Positions 3,612 to 55,345 of a stretch of DNA of 64,000 nucleotides are shown here, piece after piece. Within the stretch, counting starts at the first letter, position 1; every line of letters begins with the position of its first letter. The stretch lies in contig CBDCWU010000009.1 of NCBI GenBank assembly GCA_965223555.1, positions 375,619-439,618 on the forward strand, in the 5' to 3' direction. The stretch comes from Candidatus Promineifilaceae bacterium. Its GTDB lineage: Bacteria > Chloroflexota > Anaerolineae > Promineifilales > Promineifilaceae. Both the position numbers and the translations under genes were made by a program. The notes beneath the pieces are model-generated. The model was not told the origin of the DNA. It did no database searches and saw only the letters and a list, made by a program, of their open reading frames with translations.

Positions 3612-4174
3612 TTACATTGCTCCTCATATCTACAATTTTTGTATTGGTCAAGAGTAGCTTGAACTATGCAGTGCACAAAGAAAAACTCATTCTTTTCTCT
3701 GTGAAACTCTGTGCCTTCTCCGTGTGTCTCTGTGTAACTTTCTTTTGACCATTACCCATATCTACAATTTTCCTGATCTGGCGAAAATTATACCTGCCAA
3801 AGTGACCGAACACCTACACTATTACGCCATTCACGAACGCCAGAATCCTTGATATTTTTCTCATCAGCTAGGGGGTCTGCCTCACACAAAGGGGTCAGGA
3901 CGGGACCGACGACTCCACCACAAAACGGCCGCTGACGAACCAACCAACAGTACCAAACCACCGACAAACCAAAGCAAATCCGCCAATGGCACTGCACTAC
4001 TGATTCTAATGCGACCCAATTCAATGACTAAAGGCCATAATGGTGTCATCATAGACCAAAGTTTAACATACTTGCCAGAAGGAGAGCAAAGACAGGCCAA
4101 ACGGCCGTTGTCCCATCCAGCCCTGGCAATGGTATACTTAATCTAAATTCTCCAATTTCTACGAGAGGTACAAA

Positions 4175-5131
4175 ATGTCTTATCAAACTGAACCCTTTAA
4201 CGTATCTGCTTATGGCGGTGAGGGCTGGTCTCCCCGTACCAACTCACTGGCTGAAGAACTCGGCACCATCTGGGGCCAAGCCGGCATAAACAATGAATGG
4301 TCACGTCTCAAATCCGTCTTGCTACATCGCCCTGGCACCGAGCTGAATGCCTCAGCCGATCCCAACAGCGTACAAATGATTGAGCCACTGGACCTGTCTC
4401 GTGCCCAGGCTCAACATGATGGCATTGCCGCGGCCTATCGTAATGCTGGGGTAACCGTCCACTATGCCGAGCCTAATTGTCAACCTACGCCCAATCAAAT
4501 GTTCGTCGCCGATCTCATGTTTGCCACACCAGAAGGCGTGATACTAGCCCGGCCCGCCTCCACCATCCGCGCCGGCGAAGAACGATATGTGGCCCGCCGC
4601 CTAGCCGATATGGGTGTCCCCATCATCCGCAGCATACGCGGCCAAGGCACCTTTGAGGGAGCTGATGCCGCCTGGATTGATCCCCAAACCGTCATCTTAG
4701 GACGTGGCTTACGTACTAATGACGAGGGCGCGGCCCAAGTCACCAGCACATTGAACGAGATGGGCGTGGAAGTCATTCAAGTAGATTTACCCTTTGGCTC
4801 CATGCACCTGATGGGGATGTTGCGCTTTTTTGATCGTGATCTGGCCATTGCTTGGCCTAGACGATTCGTGCATAAAGGCGTGGAAGCCCTCAAAGCACAC
4901 GGCTATAAAGTTGTCTATTTGCCAGATGAACAAGAAGCCACACGTGGCAAAGCCTTTAATTTTGTGACACTTGGTCCCTGTGAAATTCTGATGGCCGCCG
5001 GGAACCCCAATGCTCAAGCATTTTATGAGAGCCTGGGTGTTACTTGCCATCCCGTGCCAGTAGATGAGCTAGGTAAGGCAGCAGGGGCAATTGGTTGCCT
5101 AACAGGAATTGTGGAGAGAGAAGGGGTGTAG
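4175..5131 (+). CDS. Amidinotransferase-superfamily hydrolase (DDAH / arginine deiminase-like)
   Basis: 318 aa with a C-terminal catalytic-Cys context (GAIGCLTG), typical of the dimethylarginine dimethylaminohydrolase / arginine deiminase fold. Confidence 0.5.
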   Translation: MSYQTEPFNVSAYGGEGWSPRTNSLAEELGTIWGQAGINNEWSRLKSVLLHRPGTELNASADPNSVQMIEPLDLSRAQAQHDGIAAAYRNAGVTVHYAEPNCQPTPNQMFVADLMFATPEGVILARPASTIRAGEERYVARRLADMGVPIIRSIRGQGTFEGADAAWIDPQTVILGRGLRTNDEGAAQVTSTLNEMGVEVIQVDLPFGSMHLMGMLRFFDRDLAIAWPRRFVHKGVEALKAHGYKVVYLPDEQEATRGKAFNFVTLGPCEILMAAGNPNAQAFYESLGVTCHPVPVDELGKAAGAIGCLTGIVEREGV

Positions 5132-22970: not shown

Positions 22971-23013
22971 AAGTTTAGAGAGTGGAGATTAGAGAATGGA
23001 GATGCAGAGAAAC

Positions 23014-33498: not shown

Positions 33499-36210
33499 AT
33501 GAACCTTGCAAATTTTGAGGCAGATGTAGCGGCTCCACAACGGCCGTTACTGCAAACCAAGCTCTGTATGCCCCGTACCCGGCACAGGGCCATCTCTCGC
33601 CCACGCTTAATCGAACAGCTGAATACGGCCGTTACCCCCGATGGCCTCATCCAACCCAAACTCACCCTCATTACCGGCCCCGCTGGTTACGGCAAAACCA
33701 CCCTCGCCACACAGTGGCTTAGCAATTTACGATTAGAGAATATTGCAATCAGCAATCGGCAATCGCAAATTGTCAATCCACACCTGGCTTGGCTCTCCCT
33801 CGACACAGGCGACAACGACGAAGCCCGCTTCCTGGCCTACCTCTTTGCCGCCATCGGCACGGTGCAGGAAGAGATTGGCGAGGCAGCCCAATCTCGCCTC
33901 ACCACCACGTACCTCTATAACGATACACAGGCTATCCTGACAACCTTTCTCAATGATCTGGCTGTGTGCAGCGAAACCATTGTCCTAGTTTTGGACGATT
34001 ATCACTTGATTACAGCCACGGCCGTTCATGAAATTACTACCTGCATTCTGCAGCACATGCCCGTGCAACTGCATATGGTCATCACCAGCCGCAGCGAGCC
34101 ACCCCTGCCTTTGGCCCTCCTGCGTGCTCGCCACAGCCTCAACGAAATCACTGCCCGTGATCTACGTTTTAACCAAGAAGAAGCTGCTCAGTTTTTGGGC
34201 CATACCATGAGTATACATCTGGCTCCTGCCCAAATCAGCCAGCTTGAGGAACAGGTTGAAGGCTGGGTCACAGGCTTACAATTGGCAGCCTTAGCTTTGC
34301 AGGAAAATGTGACCCTTCAACAATCCTTCTCCGGCAACCAACGCTATCTAGTGGATTATTTGGCCGAGCAGGTACTTGGCTGCCAACCGCCCGATGTACA
34401 GGAATTTTTGTTAAAAACGGCCGTTCTCAGCCAATTCAATGCCGATTTATGCGCCCATCTTACCGATTGTGATAGCCAAGCCATGCTCAGTTACCTTGAA
34501 ACTGCCAACCTCTTCCTCATCCCTCTAGACGCTGAGCGGCACTGGTATCGCTATCACCATCTATTTGCTGACTTTTTGCACGGCCGTTTGCAACAACAAA
34601 AATCCACCAGCACCATCTCTACTCTACACCAACGCGCTGCCCATTGGTATCAAGTCAATGGACAGCCGCTAACGGCCGTTGACCACGCCCTAGCCGCTGG
34701 CGACTACGATCTGGCCGTCACCGCCATTGAGCAAGTGGCCCGACAAGTGCTCATGTTTGGCGAAGGTAGCACCCTGCGCCATTGGCTAGAAAGCTTACCG
34801 GATGCCAAACGTACCGCTCAACCCAACCTTATCCTCTTCTATGCCTGGTCCCTCATCCGCACTGGCGATTTAGATCAGGCGAAAGTCATGCTGAAAGCCA
34901 TTAGCGACCAGCTAGATACACCACTGCTTTGGGGCGAATGGTCTGCTCTTTGGGCACGGCTGGCTGTTATGACGGGCGATGTAGACATCAACATTCGCTT
35001 CTCCCAAAAAGCCTTAGCCAAATTACCTCCCGACCAGCATATGCTCCGCAGCGAAGTCGCTATTAATCTGGGCTTTTCCCACTTGCAGCAAGCTGATGTG
35101 GCTGCCGCCCGAGCCGCTTTTGCCGAAGCCGCCCAAAACACAGCCCATGACCCTGGCCTGTGGGCCGTCATGTTCGCCACCTTCTATTGGGGACAAACAT
35201 ATGAGAGGCAAGCCCAGCTTCATGAGGCTTTTGAGATTTATCAGCGTGGTTTAACTTTAGCCGAGGGTCAAATGAACGGCCGTTCTCCCTCATCGGCCGT
35301 TGGCTTTATGCACATTGCCTTAGGACGTATTTACTACGAGTGGAACCGTCTGGCCGAAGCTGAAAGTCACATTCGCCGTGCCCTAGCCTGCGCCGAACGC
35401 AGTGGCGACCATAAAATGCTCATCTACAGCCGCGAAGCCCTAGCCCAACTCCTCACCACTTTAGGGGACTGGCAAGCAGCTCAAACTATCGTCAACGATT
35501 TGGAGCAGCAAACCCAGTCTCCCCCTGGAACATCTAAACTTCGTGCCATCCTGGCCTTGCAATGTAGCGACATAGCTACAGCCCAAAAGTGGGCGACCAA
35601 TCTAGAAATTGCCCTCACCGACCCGCCCCATCGCATCCAAGAATGGCCGATGGCCTATCTCACATTGGTGCAATTACACCTAGTGACGCGGGAGTTTGAG
35701 GGCGTTTTAGGCGTCTTAGACACATTGGCCGCCTACGGCAAAACTCGGCAAAGTACACAATTTTTACTTACGGTCCATTGTTTACAAGCGCTAGCCTATA
35801 GCAAACAGGGGGATATAGAAACGGCCGTTACCCATTGCCAACGTGCCTTGGCTCTGGCCGAACCAGGTGGCTATATCCGCCTCTTCCTCGATTATCAAGA
35901 TGCCGCACTGGCCCGTTTATGGCACCAGGTAGCTGCTAGTGGTGGGGCCACAGCCACATATGCCCATGCACTCCTAACCCATCTCCAGCCTGAAGAAGCC
36001 AGCTCCGTGCCCGCTGTCCAACCACTCAGCCCCCGCGAGTTGGAAGTGCTACAGCATTTGGCCGTTGGCCTCACTAACCGCCAGATCGCTGTCCAAATGG
36101 TCGTTACTATCAATACTGTCAAGGCCCACACGCGTCGTCTCTATGCCAAGCTGGATGTCAAAAGTCGCACTCAAGCTGTAGCCCGCGCTCGTCAATTGAA
36201 CCTCTTGTAA
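33499..36210 (+). CDS. MalT-like STAND ATPase / LuxR-family transcriptional regulator
   Basis: Walker A GPAGYGKTT, long TPR-like helical region, C-terminal LuxR HTH (LSPRELEVLQHLAVGLTNRQIA). Confidence 0.8.
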   Translation: MNLANFEADVAAPQRPLLQTKLCMPRTRHRAISRPRLIEQLNTAVTPDGLIQPKLTLITGPAGYGKTTLATQWLSNLRLENIAISNRQSQIVNPHLAWLSLDTGDNDEARFLAYLFAAIGTVQEEIGEAAQSRLTTTYLYNDTQAILTTFLNDLAVCSETIVLVLDDYHLITATAVHEITTCILQHMPVQLHMVITSRSEPPLPLALLRARHSLNEITARDLRFNQEEAAQFLGHTMSIHLAPAQISQLEEQVEGWVTGLQLAALALQENVTLQQSFSGNQRYLVDYLAEQVLGCQPPDVQEFLLKTAVLSQFNADLCAHLTDCDSQAMLSYLETANLFLIPLDAERHWYRYHHLFADFLHGRLQQQKSTSTISTLHQRAAHWYQVNGQPLTAVDHALAAGDYDLAVTAIEQVARQVLMFGEGSTLRHWLESLPDAKRTAQPNLILFYAWSLIRTGDLDQAKVMLKAISDQLDTPLLWGEWSALWARLAVMTGDVDINIRFSQKALAKLPPDQHMLRSEVAINLGFSHLQQADVAAARAAFAEAAQNTAHDPGLWAVMFATFYWGQTYERQAQLHEAFEIYQRGLTLAEGQMNGRSPSSAVGFMHIALGRIYYEWNRLAEAESHIRRALACAERSGDHKMLIYSREALAQLLTTLGDWQAAQTIVNDLEQQTQSPPGTSKLRAILALQCSDIATAQKWATNLEIALTDPPHRIQEWPMAYLTLVQLHLVTREFEGVLGVLDTLAAYGKTRQSTQFLLTVHCLQALAYSKQGDIETAVTHCQRALALAEPGGYIRLFLDYQDAALARLWHQVAASGGATATYAHALLTHLQPEEASSVPAVQPLSPRELEVLQHLAVGLTNRQIAVQMVVTINTVKAHTRRLYAKLDVKSRTQAVARARQLNLL

Positions 36211-38636: not shown

Positions 38637-40799
38637 TTACAGGTCGTTGATTAGTTTTTGGAATTCGGCTTCGTCGGCCAGGAATTCTAGGAGGGTGCGA
38701 TGGATGAACATCCAGCCGCCACCCACGCGGCGCAGCAATAGACGCGCCGCCATCCCATCCAAATAGGCAACCAACTTCCGATCCCGAAAAGGAAAGGGTA
38801 GCATCCCCTGCCGCGCCAACAACCAGCGCAACACATAATGCTTTATCACCGTTTCTCCCCCATATTGCATTGGCCCGATCATAAGCCCGATCATAAGCCC
38901 GACCACCAGCCCCAGCCCCAGCCCGAAAATCAGTTCACCAATGAGCGCAAAGATTAGTCCACCTCCCAATCCGAAAATTAGAGCAACAATTAGCCCATAC
39001 ACAGGACCTGTCCGCCGTGCATTATGCCATGATGTCCGAACACCTTGATTAGGTTGGGAACGTTGAAGCGTTCTATTTGTATGAATAAGAGATTCAAGTG
39101 CAGCTATTAGCCCGAAAATTAGCACACCGCCCAACCCGACAATCAGCCCAGCAATCAGCCCAGCAGTCAGCCCAGCAATCAGCCCGAAAATTAGCCCAGC
39201 ACCCAACCCAAAAATTAGCCCAGCGATCAATCCTTGTTTGATTTTTGACCGCAAAAGGGGAGAGTGAGGGCGTAGCCAACGGATTTCTTCAACTAACTGT
39301 ATAGGACCACTATCAGATACAAAAAACTGTTTAAGACTCTCGTCACGAATGCCTATACCACCTTTGAAACCGAGAAACAATCCTATTAACAGCCAAACAA
39401 CTAACCCTGCAATTAGCCCAAGAATTAGACCAACAACCAAGCTGGTAATCAGACTAAAAATTAATCCAATAACCAGACTAACAATCAGCCCAGCAATCAG
39501 CCCAGCAATCAGCCCGAAAAGCCAACGGTAGGAACGGGGATTGGGTGGCCAGCTTGGTTGTAGCTGCTCAATGTAAAAAACAGATTGGTTATGGGCTTGC
39601 AATTGGTGGGCAAGGTGGTACAACCAGGTTAAGGCGGCATGTTCATTATACGGGCCATCAGGGGGTAAGGGGCGGCGGTGCAAGTTGTGCTTGATGTAAG
39701 CGGTAAACAGTTGGTTCCGCTTGTCAGCCAAGCTCCCGCCTGCGGGCAAGGGCGTTTCACTAAAGGTGAAGGCCATGAGGTTAAGCATGAGGGGGGATTG
39801 GGCCAGTTCGCGCCACTCGTCGTCGGTGGCCACGGCTTGGCGCAGGCCGGCCAGGGGGGCGCTGAAGCTGGCTAGGTAGTCGTCTATCTGGCTGGGGGTC
39901 AGGGGCTGGAGGCGGATGGCGCTGCTGAGGTTGAGCTGTGCTTGCAGTTGCTCGTAATCGGCCAGGCGGCTGCACACCACCATGTCGGCGGGGTGGTCGG
40001 CTTTGAAGCTGTTGATGGCTGTCACACAAGCTTCGCGCTGTTCGGCAGCCACTTCATCCAGCCCATCCAGCAGCAGTGTTAACTGGTTGCCTGTCAGCCA
40101 GTCGCGGCTCAACTGGCGCGGGGCTTGGTACTGCACCAGCAATTCCTCCACTATCCAAGCAACCAAGTCCCCGCCTTCTCGCGCCCACGAGGAGAGATTA
40201 AGGACAATGGGAATGGGCTCATTGGGGTCGGCTTGGGCGGCGGTCAGCAACTCTTGCAAGAGTTGCAGCAGGGCAATGGTTTTGCCACTGGCTGGTTCGC
40301 CCAAAATCAGCAAGGCTCGTCCCCGCGCCGCGAATATTTGGGCCAAACTGGTGTCGGCTGGAATAGGCTGCTCCTCAGGGTAAAGGCTACGGTGGGGGCG
40401 GCTAAGGGCATCATGCTGGTAGCTCATGTCCAAGGCCAGGGCCACATCGTTGTGCAGGGCTGGCTCTAATATGCCCTCAATCCAGGTGTGGTGGATGTTG
40501 TTGAGGATGTTTTGGCGGTTGCGTTGTTGGGGGTGGCTGGGGGTGGCGGTGGTCAGGGCGGCAGCGAGTTCGGCGGCATTGGGCCACGTGAGTTTGTCAC
40601 GTTCCTCACGTAAAGCGGCAATTAGTTCATCTAATTGCTCGCGCCGCTGCACGTGAGTTAGCAGGGAACGAATTTTGCTGGATTTGCGAAAGCCATCCAA
40701 CTCGTCCCAATCCACACCTAAATCCATAGCCAAACCGCGTAGCTCTTCTTGGTCGAAGCTGCGGGCGATTTGTTGGTGGAGCTGTTTGGCTAGGTTCAT
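38637..40799 (-). CDS. NLR-like NACHT/STAND NTPase: N-terminal effector-associated (death-like) adaptor domain, NACHT core, and about 290-aa glycine-zipper TM repeat insertion before the C-terminal winged-helix motif
   Basis: Walker A LILGEPASGKT. Walker B LTLLLDGLDEV. Winged-helix motif RRVGGGWMFIHRTLLEFLA at the extreme C-terminus. Three blocks of (GLIxGLIx)n. The N-terminal ~60 aa are homologous to the N-terminus of the CHAT protein. Confidence 0.8.
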   Translation of the reverse strand: MNLAKQLHQQIARSFDQEELRGLAMDLGVDWDELDGFRKSSKIRSLLTHVQRREQLDELIAALREERDKLTWPNAAELAAALTTATPSHPQQRNRQNILNNIHHTWIEGILEPALHNDVALALDMSYQHDALSRPHRSLYPEEQPIPADTSLAQIFAARGRALLILGEPASGKTIALLQLLQELLTAAQADPNEPIPIVLNLSSWAREGGDLVAWIVEELLVQYQAPRQLSRDWLTGNQLTLLLDGLDEVAAEQREACVTAINSFKADHPADMVVCSRLADYEQLQAQLNLSSAIRLQPLTPSQIDDYLASFSAPLAGLRQAVATDDEWRELAQSPLMLNLMAFTFSETPLPAGGSLADKRNQLFTAYIKHNLHRRPLPPDGPYNEHAALTWLYHLAHQLQAHNQSVFYIEQLQPSWPPNPRSYRWLFGLIAGLIAGLIVSLVIGLIFSLITSLVVGLILGLIAGLVVWLLIGLFLGFKGGIGIRDESLKQFFVSDSGPIQLVEEIRWLRPHSPLLRSKIKQGLIAGLIFGLGAGLIFGLIAGLTAGLIAGLIVGLGGVLIFGLIAALESLIHTNRTLQRSQPNQGVRTSWHNARRTGPVYGLIVALIFGLGGGLIFALIGELIFGLGLGLVVGLMIGLMIGPMQYGGETVIKHYVLRWLLARQGMLPFPFRDRKLVAYLDGMAARLLLRRVGGGWMFIHRTLLEFLADEAEFQKLINDL
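38850..39530 (-). repeat. Three arrays of 12-nt tandem codon repeats (GCTGGGCTGATT-like, encoding A-G-L-I) inside the NACHT gene
   Basis: Direct tandem DNA repeats, e.g. aatcagcccagc x4 and gatcataagccc x2. In-frame, hence copy-number variable without frameshift. Confidence 0.7.
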
Positions 40800-40974
40800 G
40801 GTTGGTTTAGATAATAGTCAGCTTGCAGGAGATTGTACAGAGGAAGAAAAGGGATTACAACATCTGCACTCAAACAATTTGTTGCTTGACAACTCTCCTG
40901 GCAGGATCGTATCATCTGCTCACGATATTGTTCTCCGGTTAGATAAATATTTACTATCCATTCGCAAACAAAAC

Positions 40975-42261
40975 ATGACATCCGCGAATGGGCTTCAAGT
41001 AGCCGCTCGGTTGGGAACGTGTGCAGTTCATTATGAAATGAACGGCTACTTGGCAATCAGTGAGCAGTCCATGACAGCAAGCATCCCATTTCAACTTGAT
41101 AAACCGGGGAGTGGAGCCACGATTGTCTATCGCCCTTGGGGAATTTCTACGCTGAAAGTGCAAATAAGCACCCAAACAGATCTACCTCCTTTACGTCTAC
41201 GGCCGCAAAATGTGCACCCTGAAGAGGCAGCCAATGGGCTCTTTCGGGCCTTTGCTGATGATAGTGACGCCTTCATTATCAGCTGGGGTGGTGGCAATGA
41301 GCCGGGGCCATGCAGCCAAGCCGAAGATTTTCTGATGGCCTTTGAAAAGTGCGTGGACTTAAATCCGGGCGAAGGCAGCACTGTCTTTTTTAATGTGCAG
41401 CATGTGGGGCCAGATGTGCCGGAAACAAGCCTCATTACGTTGCAAGCCTATGATGAAGAGAGCGGGGATGTCGTAGCCGTGCTGCCTATTCAGATGGAAC
41501 AAACGGCGGCTTATCGGGCGGATGCGGTGCAATTTGTTGAGGCGGAGCCAGGGATTTGGCGACCATCAGGCAGCAGCTTGCCCACGTATGATCCGCGCTG
41601 GTGGCCGCGCTCAGTGGACTATGTGCCAGCCGATGAGTTGCCGCTAACAATTCAGTGGGGGAATAATGAGCTATTTGTGTTATGGCAGGATCATGTAGCT
41701 GCAACGGTAAGGGATCATACGCAGCCGACGATTTTGGATTTAGGCGACATTTCGTATGAACTATTTTACTTTGATGAGTGGCATGTGGCTTTACGAATCT
41801 GGTTTTTTTGGCTGGACAAGAATGTTGGCACGGATTTTTTTGTAGGGCGACATGAGGTGCCCGATGCCGAACGCTTTGATATGTTGATCCGACGCCAAGA
41901 CGGCGCCACGACGCTGGCTTGCACGGATTTGCATTGGCGGGAGACGTGGGGGCGGGTGAAAAAAGGCGAGCCGCTAGAGGCAACGCTGGGGCTGAGTACG
42001 GATACAAAGATTAAGCTGGCCAAGGAGGCTTTGGGCAAGGTGTGGCAGGTGTGGCAGCGGGATGAGAAGGTGGATCATAAACGGCCGTATGACCCTCTCA
42101 CCTATATCCAACGCATGGCCGCCACTCTGGGGGCAGAAGCTGTAGGCACGGTTCGGGCCAAAGGCACCGAAGCCCATTTGCCCGCTTTGCAAAATGTGGA
42201 AACAACTGACCAACCAGGCCGGCCGCCACGCATGACAAGTAGTGATGTGAGATTAGGATAG
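40975..42261 (+). CDS. Hypothetical protein (428 aa) divergent from NACHT gene and immediately upstream of CHAT gene
   Basis: No recognisable motif. The track ORF begins at 40675 but that would overlap the NACHT start; the first ATG after the NACHT gene is 40975. Confidence 0.5.
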   Translation: MTSANGLQVAARLGTCAVHYEMNGYLAISEQSMTASIPFQLDKPGSGATIVYRPWGISTLKVQISTQTDLPPLRLRPQNVHPEEAANGLFRAFADDSDAFIISWGGGNEPGPCSQAEDFLMAFEKCVDLNPGEGSTVFFNVQHVGPDVPETSLITLQAYDEESGDVVAVLPIQMEQTAAYRADAVQFVEAEPGIWRPSGSSLPTYDPRWWPRSVDYVPADELPLTIQWGNNELFVLWQDHVAATVRDHTQPTILDLGDISYELFYFDEWHVALRIWFFWLDKNVGTDFFVGRHEVPDAERFDMLIRRQDGATTLACTDLHWRETWGRVKKGEPLEATLGLSTDTKIKLAKEALGKVWQVWQRDEKVDHKRPYDPLTYIQRMAATLGAEAVGTVRAKGTEAHLPALQNVETTDQPGRPPRMTSSDVRLG

Positions 42262-42358: not shown

Positions 42359-44086
42359 ATGAACAGAAGGGATCTCGTTAAGTTAATAGCCCGTGATTTT
42401 GCGGATCAAGAGGAGTTTACCGATCTGCTCTTTGAGCTTGATTTAGAATACGGCAACATAAAAGGCAGCACGATTTCGGCCAAGTCACGTGAATTAGTGA
42501 CTTACAAGGAACGCCGTGGTGAAGTGGAAGAGTTATTAACAGCAATCGTCGCGATGCGACCAAATTTACAGGAACAGTTGGAAGCATATGATGGTGTGCG
42601 GCCTGGCATGGATATTGGCAAGAACAAAGGTCAAGGCTCATCCAGGCGGGGAGGGCAATCTCATCCAGGAATGGGTGATGATACGACTGATGAGCAGCAA
42701 GGTTTAGCATACGAGAATTTTGATATACGGATTCTGACGGCGGATTCAGATGGCAGTTATCGCATTCAAGTAAATCGTAATCCCGAAAATATGGAGATGT
42801 ACGATGATGTACGGCAGAAGTTTCCCCTGGATGATTATGATTTTGTTGATTTGGTAGATTACTTGTCTGATTTGATTGCCCAAGGGAATGATGCCAAACA
42901 GTTGGGGAAAATGATGCGCGACTTGCTCTTTCCGGGGCGTATTGGCGAGATATTTTTTGCCAATATGGGCAGTATGCGGCGGCAGGGGAAGGGGTTGCGC
43001 ATTCGTTTGCGCATTGATGCGCCGGAATTGAGCAAACTACCTTGGGAATATTGTTATGGCGGGGATGAGTTTGGCTTTTTTGCTCTGGACCCGCGTACGC
43101 CGCTGGTGCGCTATATTGCACGGCCGTTTGAGACTTCAACACTAGCTGTACCCAACCCCATGAAAGTGCTGCTGGCGATTGCGGCACCCTCAGACCAAGC
43201 ACCTTTGAGTGTGGATGAGGAAGAGCGGCGGGTGCGCAGTTGGCTCAGCGTGATGGGGGATCGGGTACAGTTGCGAGTAGTGCGCAATGCCACCCCGCAG
43301 CGTCTACAGGCAGCCTTGACGGATTCACCCCACATTTTCCACTTTATTGGGCATGGTGAATTTGTAGATGGGATGGGCAAATTGGTGCTGGAGGATAATT
43401 TTGGTAAATCTGAATATCGTGATTCGGAGCAGTTGAAGGTGATGCTGCGTGGGCGTGATGTGAAGGTAGTGATTCTGAATGCTTGTAAGTCGGCGGCGGG
43501 CAATGCCCACGCCGCTTTTGCGGGGGTGGCTCCAGCCTTGGTGCAGGCAGATGTGCCGGCGGTGATTGCCATGCAGTTTAATGTGCCGGACAAGACAGCC
43601 TTGGGCTTTACGCAGGATTTGTATCGCTATTTGATGGCGGGTTATCCTCTGGATCAGGCGGTGACGGAGATGCGGGCGGGGGCGTTTAATAATGCCAATG
43701 ATAAGTATTTCTGGGGTATCCCGGCCTTGTATATGCGCTCACCAGACGGCCGTTTGTGGGAGCCTGAGGCTGAATTATTGGCTAAGTTTGAGGAGGCGCG
43801 GGAAACGGCCGTTGACCAAGCTGGTGCCACGATTCCTGAGTTATTGCAGCAAATTAAAGATGAGGTGCAGAGCGCGGGTGATGTTGATGATCGAGATCGA
43901 GAGTACATTCTGCGCGGTTTAGATGATGGTTTGAGAGCGGCCAATGAAGGAGACGGCCGAGATGTGGCCTATTATCTTAACCGTGTTATTGATGATCTGA
44001 AGCGTTCTCGTTCGGATACGGCCGAGAAAGAGATTGTGCCGAAGGTGGAATTTGTGATACAGCGGGCAGAGAACGAGATGGGTTAA
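42359..44086 (+). CDS. CHAT-domain caspase-like peptidase with N-terminal effector-associated adaptor domain
   Basis: Catalytic His (IFHFIGHGEF) and Cys (VVILNACKSAAG) of the caspase-haemoglobinase fold, preceded by the LPWEYCYG helical region. N-terminal 65 aa align with the NACHT N-terminus (IAR.F.DQEE...L..L...G...K.R.L.T...RR...EL). Confidence 0.85.
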   Translation: MNRRDLVKLIARDFADQEEFTDLLFELDLEYGNIKGSTISAKSRELVTYKERRGEVEELLTAIVAMRPNLQEQLEAYDGVRPGMDIGKNKGQGSSRRGGQSHPGMGDDTTDEQQGLAYENFDIRILTADSDGSYRIQVNRNPENMEMYDDVRQKFPLDDYDFVDLVDYLSDLIAQGNDAKQLGKMMRDLLFPGRIGEIFFANMGSMRRQGKGLRIRLRIDAPELSKLPWEYCYGGDEFGFFALDPRTPLVRYIARPFETSTLAVPNPMKVLLAIAAPSDQAPLSVDEEERRVRSWLSVMGDRVQLRVVRNATPQRLQAALTDSPHIFHFIGHGEFVDGMGKLVLEDNFGKSEYRDSEQLKVMLRGRDVKVVILNACKSAAGNAHAAFAGVAPALVQADVPAVIAMQFNVPDKTALGFTQDLYRYLMAGYPLDQAVTEMRAGAFNNANDKYFWGIPALYMRSPDGRLWEPEAELLAKFEEARETAVDQAGATIPELLQQIKDEVQSAGDVDDRDREYILRGLDDGLRAANEGDGRDVAYYLNRVIDDLKRSRSDTAEKEIVPKVEFVIQRAENEMG

Positions 44087-44238: not shown

Positions 44239-44275
44239 CCGGATTACGGTTTACCGATTACTGATTACGGAACAT
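44239..44275. repeat. Copy of ccggattacggtt.accgatta repeat element between CHAT and nuclease genes
   Basis: cggattacggtttaccgattactgattacgg compared with 18395-18425. Confidence 0.4.
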
Positions 44276-45074
44276 GCCAGATACGCTCACCCTTAGTCGC
44301 ACGAAGTTTTCTGCTTTTTTGGCTTGCCAGCGGCGCTTTGAATTGCGCTATTTGCGGCAATTGTCCTGGCCAGATGTGCCTTTGTCGGAGCAGTCGGCCT
44401 TGGTGCAGAAACGGGGGCAACAGTTTCATCAGTTGTTGGAAAGACATTTCCTAGGGCTGTCAATAGAGTTGAATGGCATTAGCGACAGTGTGGTGCGCCG
44501 ATGGTGGCTGGCATTTCAGGGCAGTAATCCAGTCTCCAGTCTCCAATCTCCAGCCTCTAGCTGGCAACGATTACCAGAACTGTCGCTCACTATTCCGGTG
44601 GGAGGTTATTTGCTGAACGGCCGTTTCGACCTCCTCGTTATAGCTGACCAACAAGCCCACATCTTTGACTGGAAAACGGGCAAACCCCAACCGGAGCGGC
44701 GTTTGCGCCATGATTGGCAAACACGCCTTTATTTGGCAATGGTAGCCGAGAGCAGCACGGCATTGGGGGCAGATTTTGCGCCGGAGCAGATTACCCTCAC
44801 CTACTGGTATGTGTCCGAACCAGATGCGCCGCGCACAATCCAGTATGATGCGGCCTGGCATAGGCAAAATTGGGCCGAGATTGAGCAGTTGGTGACACAA
44901 ATTGAGGTCGCCACAGCTGAGGGGATGTGGCCGTTAACGGATGATTGGGAGCAATGCCGTCCGTGTGCCTATCGGGCCCATTGTGGGCGACAAGAGGTTG
45001 AAACGGCCGAATCCGCTCCCGATGAAGATGCAGAAGAAGTTGTGAGTTTGCAATTGGAACCAAATATCCCATAA
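44274..45074 (+). CDS. PD-(D/E)XK nuclease with Cas4/AddB-like Fe-S cysteine cluster
   Basis: Motifs GRFDLLV ... IFDWKTGK (D ... D/ExK). One N-terminal Cys plus C-terminal C-X2-C-X5-C (CRPCAYRAHC). Confidence 0.6.
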   Translation: MPDTLTLSRTKFSAFLACQRRFELRYLRQLSWPDVPLSEQSALVQKRGQQFHQLLERHFLGLSIELNGISDSVVRRWWLAFQGSNPVSSLQSPASSWQRLPELSLTIPVGGYLLNGRFDLLVIADQQAHIFDWKTGKPQPERRLRHDWQTRLYLAMVAESSTALGADFAPEQITLTYWYVSEPDAPRTIQYDAAWHRQNWAEIEQLVTQIEVATAEGMWPLTDDWEQCRPCAYRAHCGRQEVETAESAPDEDAEEVVSLQLEPNIP

Positions 45075-49184: not shown

Positions 49185-49290
49185 CCTCCACACTATCCAC
49201 CACCATACAGCCACAAAACATCTTCGAGTCCGTCATCAACTCCGTACACATCTCTAATCCAATCACTGCTTCATGATTCGTCATCCACAT
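49185..49290 (-). pseudogene. Diverged duplicate of the gatB 5' end (first ~35 codons, ~90% nt identity to 48432-48532)
   Basis: Encodes [34 protein letters not shown], compared with [34 protein letters not shown] for genuine GatB. Homology ends at gcctccacac on both copies. Confidence 0.8.
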
Positions 49291-50597
49291 CTTTCCAAAA
49301 TAAGAATATGTTCTTCTACATTCATCTTCGTTACTGTAGACAAGCGCGTACGCCACAACAAGGTTTCCACTTCTCGATAGTTCAATTTTTGGCAAGCAAT
49401 TAAGCTGAGAAGTTTAGCTGTATAAATTGGCACACGAAAATAACTCATCTGATCGCCAACAACAAAAGCCAATTGAGCCCCGACAGACGTAACTTGTTGC
49501 AATTGTTCCAAAACTCGAAACATGCCACCAAAATATTCTGTGACTACTCGATGATACAGGCGTTCAAAGCCAGATGTCGCTCCCCGTTCAATTCGTTTCC
49601 GTTCAATCTCCTGAGACAGTTTCTGAATTTCTGGCATATCGGCTACGTATTGGGCATCATCATCAGCAACATACACATTACGTGTATGAGAACGCAACAT
49701 CTCCTTTTTGATGGTACGTAAATCCCCTTTACTTTGCATAAAATCTAGCAAAAGCAATTCTAATCGTGTGATGCGCGAATAATCTTTCTCATTAGGGTAT
49801 GGGGGTGAGCAGATGATGAAATCTATGTTCGTATCCATAAACGCTGTCAACTTTCGTGCATCCCCTAAATAAACAATTGATTCGCCAAGCTGTTCAATCT
49901 GCTGCACTTTCACCAAATCAATCCGCATTCGGCGCAATTTATCTACAAATAAATTATAAACATCTGCATCTTTGCGCTTTTTAGACACATACACTTCTGG
50001 CCCAAACCCTAAATTAGAAGCCGCTACAAATACGTTGGCTAAAGCCAGTTGAAACAACTCTGTTAAACTATCCTCCGGTTCGTCAATTAGCAATTGTTTG
50101 ATGATTAAACATTTCTGCAAAGGGTTAGGGCTAATCCAGTTCTTGGGTAATAAGCCCCGGATAATTTCCCCATCCACTTCCATTTCTGTCTCAGCAAGCA
50201 AGCCGCCAGGTGGCAATAAATCATCGAAGGAAAGTTGTGTTGCATATTGTTTGCCCACTGCATGAATTGGTTGCCAGATTCTCTGGCATAGAGATTGAAA
50301 TCGATTATCAAATTCTGTTAAATCAATGTCCCAATTTGTTTTCACCCGACTAGCAAAAGCGGTGACTGGATTCGCATCAATGCCGATAGAATTGATCCCT
50401 CGTCGCTTACATTCCACCAAAGTTGTTCCTGTTCCCACAAATGGGTCTAGCACTACATGATTGTGCCCAATCCCAAATTTTTCGATGAGACCAGATACGA
50501 GATGATCGGGATAAGACAAAACGAAACGATACCAATCATGAATAGTTGTATCGTCTAATTGTTGCGCCGTGTGATTCGGCCGTTGTAAATCACTCAT
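49281..50597 (-). CDS. DNA methyltransferase, N6-adenine/N4-cytosine type (SPPY motif IV, alpha-class order)
   Basis: Motif I DPFVGTGTT near the N-terminus. Motif IV FIICSPPYPNE about 200 aa downstream. Confidence 0.75.
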   Translation of the reverse strand: MSDLQRPNHTAQQLDDTTIHDWYRFVLSYPDHLVSGLIEKFGIGHNHVVLDPFVGTGTTLVECKRRGINSIGIDANPVTAFASRVKTNWDIDLTEFDNRFQSLCQRIWQPIHAVGKQYATQLSFDDLLPPGGLLAETEMEVDGEIIRGLLPKNWISPNPLQKCLIIKQLLIDEPEDSLTELFQLALANVFVAASNLGFGPEVYVSKKRKDADVYNLFVDKLRRMRIDLVKVQQIEQLGESIVYLGDARKLTAFMDTNIDFIICSPPYPNEKDYSRITRLELLLLDFMQSKGDLRTIKKEMLRSHTRNVYVADDDAQYVADMPEIQKLSQEIERKRIERGATSGFERLYHRVVTEYFGGMFRVLEQLQQVTSVGAQLAFVVGDQMSYFRVPIYTAKLLSLIACQKLNYREVETLLWRTRLSTVTKMNVEEHILILERCG

Positions 50598-53497: not shown

Positions 53498-55345
53498 TCA
53501 CGGCGCATCTGAAGCGCAGCGGAAACCGAGATTGGCGCGGGCCACAAGTGGGTCGAAAGAGGTGCGTGCTGTCGTAGCCACATCTTCCACATCGGACAGC
53601 CAAGAGCCACCACGTATTGTTTTGAACTGACCCTCTACGGGGCCAAGCGGATTGGTGTCGCTGATGTCCTGATAGGCACGGAAGTCGTACCAATCGTTGA
53701 CCCATTCCATCACATTGCCGCTCATGTCATAGAGGCCAATGGGGGAACGGCCGTCGCCATAGCTACCTACCGGCGCTGTATCCCGATGCCCATCATCAAA
53801 GGCGGGATCACGCTGATCGGCAGGGCAATTACTATCACAAAAATTGAGCTTGGCCCCGTCAAAAGCTTCGCCCCAAGGATAACGTAACTTCAAGGCTTGC
53901 ACAGGATCAAAACCAGCCGCTTTCTCCCACTCTGCTTCTGATGGCAGGCGAGCCTCGCGCCACTCACAAAATGTTTGAGCATCATACCAACTAACAAAAA
54001 TTACGGGATAATCGATAAAAGCTGGTGAGCCATAATAAGCATTATGGTAGGTGGCATTGGGCCGACGGGGCGGCTGGCACACACCGGCATCTACACATTG
54101 GGCATATTGGCCGTTGGTCACTTCGGTTTCATCAATGTAAAAGGGGTTGAGCCGCACCAATTGTGAGGGCTTTTCATCGTTTTCACCCTCATCATGGCCG
54201 ATGCGAAAGACGCCAGCCGGCATAAAGATCATACGTGCCCCCGTTTCGGTGATGATAGGTTCGGGGGTGGGTGTCGGTGGCTCAGTGGGAGCGGGCAGAG
54301 GTGTGGGTGTGGGGGCAATAGCTGTTAGGGCAGCGATGACGACGGATTCGACAGTGGCAGTGGTCCCAATTTCGGCTGCCTCTGGCTCGTCTTGGCTGGC
54401 AAGGCTGAAGAGGCCAATCAGTGTGAGGAGGATTATGAGAACGACCGCTAAACCCCAAATGGTGCGCTGTTCAATCTGTTTACGCCGGGTAGGTGTGAGA
54501 ACAGGTGGCGGGGCGGTGGCTGAGGGAACGGCCGTGCGTCGCAGTTCATCTGGGGGCAAAGGCACTGGATGGCCGGCAGGGCGATTGAGAGCTTGAGCAA
54601 AATCAGCCGCCGTCTCATAACGAGCGTCAGCCCGCATAGACATAGCTCGGGCCGCTACCAGCGACAGATAAGGTTCCACATCAGGGTTTACCTCTCGCGC
54701 CGGAATAAGATCAACTAGGCCGCTTTCGCGGCTGAGGGCTTGGGGCGGCACTTGGGCCGTCAACAGCGTGTAGAGCGTAGCCCCCAGACTGTAGATGTCA
54801 CTATAAGCTGACACCTCTGTCTGTGCTTGCTGTTCCGGTGCGCCATAGCCATCTGTGTGGGGGCGCACCCCCATGCCTGATAACCCGGTGTCTACGAGGA
54901 AGATTTGGGAATCGGCCGTTAGTCGTAAATTAGCAGGTTTAATATTGAGATGCAGCACACCTTGCTGGTGCAAATAGCCCAGCGGTTCACAAGCCGCTTG
55001 CAGCCAGCCAATAAGCAAATCTGAGGGTAACGCGCCATACTGATTCAGCAGACTTTGTAAATCCACACCATCCACATAATCACTGACCAAATATTGGCCG
55101 ACGCCATCCAGCGGAAAGTGGTCGCGGAAGGTTGCTAGCTGAGGATGGCTCAGTTGGGTGAGGCGGCGGGCTTCGCTACGGAAGCGTTTTTGAATCTCTG
55201 GCGAGGCATCTAGATACTCTTTGATGGCATAATGCCGCTCATCTTTGATGTCGTAGGCGCGGTAGGTGGCCCCATATGAGCCAGAGGCCATCAAGTTGAC
55301 AATACGATAGCGGTGATTGAGAAGTTCACCAGGAAGAAGAGGCAT
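53498..55345 (-). CDS. Ser/Thr protein kinase fused to C-terminal FGE-sulfatase (SUMF1/formylglycine-generating enzyme-like) domain via a Pro/Thr-rich TM linker
   Basis: Kinase subdomains (AIKEY, HLNIKPANL, DTG-like) in the N-terminal half. FGE motifs (NGQYAQC ... RGGSW ... W-rich) in the C-terminal half. Confidence 0.75.
   Translation of the reverse strand: MPLLPGELLNHRYRIVNLMASGSYGATYRAYDIKDERHYAIKEYLDASPEIQKRFRSEARRLTQLSHPQLATFRDHFPLDGVGQYLVSDYVDGVDLQSLLNQYGALPSDLLIGWLQAACEPLGYLHQQGVLHLNIKPANLRLTADSQIFLVDTGLSGMGVRPHTDGYGAPEQQAQTEVSAYSDIYSLGATLYTLLTAQVPPQALSRESGLVDLIPAREVNPDVEPYLSLVAARAMSMRADARYETAADFAQALNRPAGHPVPLPPDELRRTAVPSATAPPPVLTPTRRKQIEQRTIWGLAVVLIILLTLIGLFSLASQDEPEAAEIGTTATVESVVIAALTAIAPTPTPLPAPTEPPTPTPEPIITETGARMIFMPAGVFRIGHDEGENDEKPSQLVRLNPFYIDETEVTNGQYAQCVDAGVCQPPRRPNATYHNAYYGSPAFIDYPVIFVSWYDAQTFCEWREARLPSEAEWEKAAGFDPVQALKLRYPWGEAFDGAKLNFCDSNCPADQRDPAFDDGHRDTAPVGSYGDGRSPIGLYDMSGNVMEWVNDWYDFRAYQDISDTNPLGPVEGQFKTIRGGSWLSDVEDVATTARTSFDPLVARANLGFRCASDAP

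Follow-up and report, generated by a model that had tools for sequence, protein, structure and literature searches.

The stretch of DNA analysed here, called the window below, comprises 64,000 nucleotides of a Candidatus Promineifilaceae bacterium (contig CBDCWU010000009.1, positions 375,619 to 439,618). On its minus strand, at 38637..40799, lies an open reading frame (ORF) of 720 aa that encodes an EAD7 adaptor domain and a NACHT NTPase, with three membrane hairpins inserted ahead of a C-terminal winged-helix element. The hairpins are made of Gly-Leu-Ile-x tetrads in succession, so that the DNA carries a strict in-frame period of 12 nt. Most of the 37 repeat units are old and diverged, and three small patches among them are recent local duplicates.

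The domain assignments rest on profiles and on the predicted fold. The EAD7 domain (aa 7-67; 40599..40781, minus strand) matches Pfam PF19960 over profile positions 1-61 of 62, with 69.4 bits for a cut-off of 32 (E=2.2e-19). For the NACHT P-loop NTPase core (aa 162-310; 39870..40316, minus strand), assigned by Pfam PF05729 and a Foldseek fold match, the Pfam score of 26.7 bits stands exactly at the cut-off (26.7), and PF05729 is also found among the precomputed annotations of the homologs. Taking GxxxxGK[ST] as the Walker A motif and hhhhDGhDE as the Walker B motif, we find GEPASGKT at aa 167-174 and LLLDGLDEV at aa 242-250, both invariant in 60 homologs. A sequence search of the PDB with the family profile gave only weak P-loop matches to RFC, so that confirmation of the NACHT assignment needed a search by fold. 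The AlphaFold2 model of the protein, computed with 60 homologs (predicted local distance difference test, pLDDT, 89.4; predicted TM-score, pTM, 0.79), has NOD2, NLRC4 and NLRP3 as its best Foldseek matches (E down to 4.9e-07, probability 1.00). It shows the succession of nucleotide-binding, helical and winged-helix domains of animal NLRs, including the C-terminal FIHRTLLEFLA element. Searches with NCBIfam and PADLOC returned NACHT-like matches that were all sub-threshold, and the gene is therefore not a member of a named defence system. As to the start of the gene, the only public record of this protein (P0001, 696 aa) is identical to the window protein over 696 aa but begins 24 codons downstream, which leaves out 40728-40799 of the window and truncates the EAD7 domain (Pfam match at aa 7-67). 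Since both orthologs described below begin at the start position of the 720-aa ORF, and since the shorter start cuts into EAD7, the longer ORF is to be preferred. The N-terminal domain differs from one family member to another (EAD7, TIR, kinase, CHAT or two-helix segments), while the membrane module is constant.

The tetrads, mostly of the form G-L-I-x, occupy residues 429-484, 523-570 and 602-645. In the AlphaFold2 model these three runs form three hairpins, that is, six long hydrophobic helices, with a turn of 1-4 residues per hairpin and a helix pLDDT mostly of 82-95. Block 1 (14 units, aa 429-484; 39348..39515, minus strand) corresponds to predicted helices 421-451 and 454-479, block 2 (12 units, aa 523-570; 39090..39233, minus strand) to helices 513-542 and 544-571, and block 3 (11 units, aa 602-645; 38865..38996, minus strand) to helices 585-618 and 623-663. 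Glycine is the first residue in 28 of the 37 units, which gives the helices a glycine-zipper-like pattern, with the GxxxG motif repeated along a hydrophobic helix. The blocks are separated by two loops on the same strand: loop 1 (aa 485-522; 39234..39347) has a conserved LVEE..W motif and a short strand, and loop 2 (aa 571-601; 38997..39089) has an invariant P-N-Q-G motif and a short strand that pairs with that of loop 1. Past the hairpins, the C-terminal element (aa 646-720; 38640..38864, minus strand) consists of invariant or near-invariant columns, with a YGG..HY.LR motif, a beta-hairpin (strands 689-692 and 695-698) and, at the very end of the protein, the winged-helix signature of NACHT proteins, GGGWMFIHRTLLEFLA. 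According to the model, the hairpins thus sit inside the NACHT module, between the first part of the winged-helix domain and the C-terminal FIHRT..LA element. The window protein has no separate C-terminal repeat sensor, and in the model no extracytoplasmic domain is found at the hairpin tips. Charged residues are present at the bases of the hairpins and not at their tips, a distribution that fits a predicted topology in which all loops are cytoplasmic.

At the DNA level, Tandem Repeats Finder (TRF) reports period-12 arrays at three places in the gene: 38873-38902 (2.5 copies, 100%), 39140-39229 (7.5 copies, 70%) and 39482-39515 (2.8 copies, 100%; 34 nt). Six of the seven TRF rows obtained for the whole 64-kb window belong to this gene; the only other match, at 22975-23003 (14-nt unit, 2.1 copies), lies between two ORFs. 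A two-unit pattern, allowing up to two mismatches, has five matches in the window, all in this gene, for 0.00 expected. Within blocks all repeat copies are in the same 12-nt register, and the offsets between blocks are multiples of 3. Two small ORFs in other frames over the repeats (39094-39279, minus strand, and 39349-39531, plus strand) are taken as by-products of the periodic sequence.

A reading of the sequence alone had described the three blocks as built of near-identical 12-mers, and had seen in their high DNA identity an argument for recent expansion. The strings on which it relied are indeed present on the plus strand: aatcagcccagc aatcagcccagc agtcagcccagc aatcagccc at about 39141-39185, a second aatcagcccagc run at 39482-39515, and two copies of gatcataagccc at 38877-38900; on the coding strand, GCT GGG CTG ATT does encode A-G-L-I in frame. 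The description holds, however, for short patches of 3, 4 and 2 units only, and overstates the case for the bulk of the arrays: of the 37 units, 9 match the consensus GGGCTGATTGTT with at most two mismatches, and the majority of units depart from it at 3-6 of 12 positions. The only identical DNA units are GGGCTGATTGCT, present four times (twice at the start of block 1 and twice in the middle of block 2), and GGGCTTATGATC, present twice at the end of block 3. Recent expansion is likewise upheld for the three patches and not for the remaining, diverged units. On the minus strand, the patch of block 1 (39480..39515) is made of two GGGCTGATTGCT units followed by GGGCTGATTGTT and coincides with the TRF array of 2.8 perfect copies. 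That of block 2 (39138..39185) contains four units within two mismatches of the consensus and shares with block 1 an exact stretch of 27 nt. That of block 3 (38877..38900) is a perfect duplication of GGGCTTATGATC, encoding LMIG LMIG, reported by TRF as 2.5 copies at 100%.

A repeated protein motif encoded with biased codons will produce look-alike 12-mers, and the repeat was therefore compared with 20,000 shuffles in which synonymous codons were swapped among positions of the same residue inside the arrays, a procedure that alters neither the protein nor the codon usage of the arrays. Among same-residue neighbours one unit apart, 42 of 68 share their codon in the gene, against 24.6±3.4 in the shuffles, none of which (0/20,000) reaches 42. 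The longest 12-periodic run measures 22 nt, against 10.1±2.6 after shuffling (p=0.002). Codon use in the arrays also differs from that of the rest of the gene, with GGG, GCT and ATT favoured in the former and GGC and GCC in the latter: GGG serves for 21 of 37 glycines in the arrays versus 6 of 25 elsewhere, and GCT for 9 of 12 alanines versus 8 of 58. The G+C content, about 0.60 in the NACHT part, is 0.43-0.50 across the arrays (38865-39515). If a coding minisatellite is defined by head-to-tail units kept in frame, with an identity beyond that dictated by the protein repeat and codon bias, the first property is found throughout the arrays and the second in the three patches only.

Two orthologs, found by protein search at 66-67% identity, give some depth to this picture: P0002, on an ENA contig (L001), and P0003, in an Ardenticatenaceae metagenome-assembled genome (L002). 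In the codon alignment, the LMIG-LMIG duplicate of the window gene appears as a 4-codon insertion relative to both of them. Gaps inside the membrane blocks of the three-way alignment are of 4, 6 or 8 codons, mostly 4 or 8, and a single long gap of 14 codons straddles the junction of block 1 with the next loop. Pairwise alignments of orthologs at about 70% identity likewise have most array indels of 4 or 8 residues, with exceptions of 5, 14 and 15 residues, plus one of 11 in the loop after block 1; these odd sizes reflect the ambiguous placement of gaps in repeats and across the end of block 1. Short period-12 arrays are reported by TRF in each ortholog too, and at the start of block 1 each lineage has its own duplicated 12-mer, GGGCTGATTGCT in the window, GGATTGATTATT in L001 and GGACTGCTTGTC in L002, as would be expected if duplication and loss had gone on locally in each lineage.

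A scan of genomes for the wider family gave 80 loci, which belong to Chloroflexota, Cyanobacteria and, here and there, other phyla. The best match of the genome-contig scan (L003, 70% identity) is on a truncated contig without the repeat region. Neither the 720-aa nor the 696-aa form of the protein had an entry in the assembly index. In metagenomes, a scan with the window protein produced 84 pattern matches, none of them a relative, a second one with the DNA pattern GGYGGCTGGATGTTCATCCAYCGCACCCTC, conserved in the three orthologs, produced 0 matches, and the protein cluster of the window protein has a single member. The collections searched thus yielded no strain variants of this locus. Submitted to the shuffle test, 14 of 78 family genes, that of the window included, have an excess of same-codon neighbours (z>2.5), and in the remaining 64 the arrays are hydrophobic and show no signal at the DNA level. 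The 14 genes come from Chloroflexota, Cyanobacteria and one Methanocrinis; this archaeal member (L035, Candidatus Methanocrinis alkalitolerans; z=3.6) suggests a transfer of the family across domains. Length variation follows the DNA signal: subfamilies devoid of it have 0 gaps at 72-91% identity, and in those that have it, at 67-77% identity, 16-80 positions are gapped; almost all of these gaps fall within the arrays, and their usual sizes are 4, 8, 12 or 20 residues. More strongly repetitive arrays than that of the window exist in the family, with 14 copies at 80% in L069 (Lyngbya aestuarii) and 18.8 copies at 83% in L083. In L069, positions 3891-4383 also contain a higher-order tandem repeat of 210 nt (2.3 copies at 84%), which corresponds to a whole hairpin plus loop recently duplicated. 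We considered whether the repetitive members form one subfamily and rejected this, as repetitive and non-repetitive genes are mutual nearest relatives (for example, L033 and L013 at 70% identity).

Homolog alleles give further evidence of unit gain and loss. We compared 20 homolog clusters of at least 90% identity, each with several long members. Four of them contain membrane-array indels, all multiples of four residues (4, 4+4, 8, 8 and 4 aa): P0064/P0163 and P0164/P0165 differ by one GLIG unit and are otherwise 100% identical; P0087/P0150 and P0152/P0153 differ by one GLIGGLFV unit; P0119 differs from P0128/P0131/P0132 by 8 aa, or 4+4 aa; and P0095/P0172/P0174 differ from P0173 by one GLTE unit. 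The remaining indels in all 20 clusters amount to one of 1 aa and one of 2 aa, both outside the arrays. At the nucleotide level, the 3004-nt alignment of L083 with L084 contains no mismatch and a single 12-nt indel (TGGGCTGATTGG) within a run of GGGCTGATTGNT units, and comparison of L085/L086 with L087 shows 10 mismatches in 1602 nt and one 24-nt unit of difference. A further indel separates L085 from L087 downstream of the homolog gene (about 3951-4253 in L085); its 303 nt are three copies of a tandem repeat of about 101 nt.

Length change in the family thus consists predominantly of 12- or 24-nt units gained or lost, and is concentrated in members with DNA-level repetition in their arrays. 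Unit-number polymorphism is real in the family but modest, with 1-2 units in one fifth of the clusters. These data bear on three predictions of the sequence-only reading. Gain and loss of units without destruction of the frame is borne out as a mode of change in relatives, by the 12- and 24-nt indels between near-identical alleles, and the addition of whole transmembrane helices has its example in the duplicated hairpin and loop of L069. The suggestion of hypervariability, reminiscent of contingency loci, did not fare as well: perfect runs have fewer than 3 copies, most units are diverged, the changes are in frame without any on/off switching, and variation, of 1-2 units each time, is limited to 4 of the 20 clusters of near-identical homologs.

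One property of the arrays extends far beyond the window. Of the 335 occurrences of G-L-I in the arrays of 79 family genes, 83 use GGGCTGATT, where 10.8 would be expected from the non-array codon usage of the same genes. At least three copies of GGGCTGATT are found in each of 11 genes from different phyla (L002, L005, L011, L021, L033, L041, L055, L069, L076, L083 and the window gene), and GGG is enriched among the array glycine codons of 56 of 81 genes. Because repetitive and non-repetitive genes are interleaved in the family, a single repetitive subfamily does not account for the recurrence of GGGCTGATT across phyla.

The surroundings of the gene may indicate the kind of system to which it belongs. 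At 42359..44086, on the plus strand and therefore divergent from the NACHT gene at a distance of 1.5 kb, a gene encodes an EAD7 domain (Pfam, 46.7 bits) joined to a caspase-like CHAT protease (96.4 bits); the EAD7 domains of the two proteins share 36% identity (E=6e-11). EADs recruit effectors bearing the same EAD (PMC7159879), and the EAD7-CHAT protein is likely, judging from its domains, to be the recruited effector. Two features of an EAD7-coupled conflict system (Kaur et al. 2020) are found here, an EAD7 on the NTPase and a separate effector nearby with the same EAD, so that the two genes together look like an EAD-coupled NACHT/caspase conflict system. Between them, an ORF of up to 528 aa without Pfam match (40675-42261, plus strand) has a TTG start that overlaps the 5' end of the NACHT gene; its true start is probably later, and a counterpart was not seen adjoining the two orthologs. 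Directly after the CHAT gene comes a PD-(D/E)XK nuclease gene (44274-45074, plus strand) and, a few kb further, a DNA methylase-like gene (49281-50597, minus strand); with these the neighbourhood may be a defence island. Two other genes of the window can be mentioned. A second STAND-type protein (33499-36210, plus strand), with AAA_16, MalT-like TPR and LuxR/GerE helix-turn-helix domains, is a MalT-type regulator, and a protein kinase is fused to an FGE-sulfatase (FGS) domain at 53498-55345 (minus strand), an architecture treated as a sensor type in the literature on conflict systems.

How should the 12-nt repeat be understood? One possibility is that the periodicity exists at the protein level only, selection for a (GxxxG)n helix together with codon bias giving look-alike 12-mers in the absence of any ongoing DNA duplication. 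Such a view accommodates the fact that most units differ at 3-6 of 12 positions, that adjacent and distant units are nearly equally alike, and that 64 of the 78 family members tested have no same-codon excess; for the bulk of the arrays it is near the truth. It leaves unexplained the 42 same-codon neighbours where synonymous shuffling gives 24.6±3.4, the LMIG duplicate inserted relative to both orthologs, the 12- and 24-nt indels between otherwise identical homolog alleles, and an array codon use that departs strongly from what is found elsewhere in the gene (GGG, 55% versus 25%; GCT, 9/12 versus 8/58). The three patches largely refute it, and as a general account we regard it as very improbable. 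Repeats and allele differences might also be assembly or sequencing artefacts of a region of low complexity, all the more since the homolog alleles come from short-read metagenome assemblies. But the arrays are short and their units non-identical, so that reads span them; every indel keeps the frame and the tetrad register; and a protein recorded independently matches that of the window gene without difference over 696 aa. Moreover, the same alleles recur in separate contigs or samples (P0064/P0163 versus P0164/P0165; L085 and L086 versus L087), which argues against assembly error. An artefact therefore seems extremely improbable to us.

At the opposite end, the locus could be hypervariable in the manner of true contingency loci, with unit changes occurring at high frequency in populations and selected to diversify a membrane sensor, as in the repeats of fungal NLRs. 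The arrays do occupy the position of the variable sensor repeats of NLRs, allele differences limited to units are found in 4 of 20 homolog clusters, one pair having no substitution in 3 kb, and the soluble WD40, ANK and TPR sensors of fungal NLRs offer a precedent, with repeat-number polymorphism between isolates and concerted evolution (PMC4986451). Yet perfect runs do not exceed 2.8 copies or 34 nt, all changes are multiples of 12 nt and stay in frame, such that no switching results, orthologs at about 70% identity differ by only a few units per block, and 16 of the 20 clusters show no membrane-array variation, all of which makes this proposal distinctly unlikely. A different question is whether the hairpins are themselves the effector, their glycine-zipper helices forming a membrane pore upon oligomerisation of the NACHT module. 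Stripes of GxxxG are characteristic of helices that pack tightly or form channels, and the hairpin tips of the AlphaFold2 model have no extracytoplasmic domain. Against this, it is the N-terminal effector or adaptor domain that varies in the family while the membrane module is constant, and a dedicated EAD7-CHAT partner is encoded nearby; we hold a pore to be distinctly unlikely as well. A bolder proposal is a bacterial NLR embedded in the membrane, with the tetrad arrays as its fast-evolving sensor: turnover of units, and occasionally of whole hairpins, would tune helix length and packing and diversify the receptors within populations, much like the shuffling of repeats in fungal and plant NLRs, the recurrence of GGGCTGATT then being due to sequence-specific amplification or exchange and not to chance. 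This we consider rather unlikely.

We therefore favour, as the probable explanation, that the arrays are the membrane part of an EAD7-NACHT, NLR-like STAND ATPase and constitute a coding minisatellite with a slow to moderate turnover, which changes helix length in steps of one turn and is not a phase-variation switch. Several observations weigh against it. Mean unit identity hardly depends on distance, being 7.0/12 for adjacent units, 6.8/12 for non-adjacent units of the same block and 6.6/12 between blocks. The window gene is a weak carrier of the repeat, with 7.5 copies at 70% versus 14-19 copies at 80-85% in L069 and L083, and the instability attributed to it would be an extrapolation from homologs at 37-46% identity. 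Since the homolog alleles come from metagenome assemblies, some of their differences could conceivably be errors in the assembly of repeats, despite their recurrence in separate contigs. Finally, the role of the hairpins as sensor or anchor, the membrane topology and the recruitment of CHAT are all features that we infer. For the window gene itself, the repeat is mostly old and looks only mildly unstable: a gain of units in its history is real, and hypervariability today is unsupported.

Under this minisatellite explanation, slippage during replication or unequal exchange between neighbouring units would add or remove 4 residues, that is, about one helical turn or about 6 Å. The 27-nt identity of blocks 1 and 2 suggests that exchange may occasionally take place between blocks as well. 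Such changes of length might be tolerated because a hairpin of uniform composition could shift its turn and absorb an extra helical turn, and duplication of a hairpin would add two helices at once, leaving the topology unchanged. The hairpins may serve as membrane anchors of the NTPase and, as proposed for this architectural class, are probably the part that detects a signal within the membrane. Their coupling to the winged-helix domain could be the task of the conserved loops on the cytoplasmic side (LVEE..W, PNQG and YGG..HY.LR). Activation and oligomerisation would then cluster the EAD7 domains and recruit the neighbouring EAD7-CHAT protease (PMC7159879).

Several known systems resemble this arrangement in part. 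The bacterial NACHT proteins with a 'TM regions' sensor (Kibby et al. 2022/2023; Kaur et al. 2020, 2021) combine, like the window protein, a NACHT NTPase and an N-terminal adaptor or effector domain (here EAD7) with several membrane segments inserted in the NACHT module; they too belong to multicellular or filamentous lineages (Chloroflexota, Cyanobacteria) and have a partner effector with the same EAD. The literature searched on this class devotes a single sentence to the architecture. In it, neither a (G-L-I-x)n composition, nor a 12-nt DNA repeat, nor a polymorphism in unit number is described, and a literature search gave nothing specific on tetrad or glycine-zipper repeats in NACHT membrane inserts, or on slippage in membrane helices. 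Membrane segments inserted within an NTPase module are also present in the KAP family of P-loop NTPases (Aravind et al. 2004, cited in PMC8195603), which differ by their NTPase family and by the site of insertion, the window protein being a NACHT by profile and by fold. As regards the helices, a glycine at every fourth position along a long hydrophobic segment recalls the glycine-zipper motif (GxxxGxxxG). Known glycine zippers are short, with 2-3 GxxxG repeats in otherwise unique helices, whereas here the unit makes up the whole helix and the hairpin turn.

With contingency loci and the coding variable-number tandem repeats of bacterial surface proteins, the arrays share coding tandem repeats, a copy number that, among the homologs, differs between close relatives, and a frame kept by a unit length that is a multiple of three. 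Contingency loci consist of long perfect tracts with very high switching rates, and usually act by shifts of frame or of promoter spacing that turn genes on and off. In the window gene, by contrast, the perfect runs are of 2.5 and 2.8 copies and there is no switching, so that both the long perfect tract and the switching are missing, and its product would be a cytoplasm-facing membrane protein instead of a surface antigen. NLR-type receptors diversify soluble repeat sensors by the shuffling of units. A parallel in this respect is offered by fungal NLRs (Paoletti 2007; Dyrka 2014, PMC4986451), STAND proteins in which a repeat region distinct from the NTPase evolves by gain, loss and exchange of units. 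Their units, however, are of 33-42 residues, soluble and ligand-binding, with more than 85% internal identity over at least 100 aa, whereas those of the window gene are of 4 residues, lie in membrane helices and have an internal DNA identity of about 58%, which falls short of 85% over 100 residues.

If the minisatellite explanation is true, repeat diversification in the style of NLRs extends to membrane helices, where it would proceed stepwise, by one helical turn at a time. It would concern a widespread and uncharacterised class of bacterial NACHT proteins that carry a membrane module inside the NTPase module. Natural alleles one tetrad apart would then provide an experimental handle on what the membrane module senses, and on how far a glycine-zipper hairpin tolerates a change in its length.

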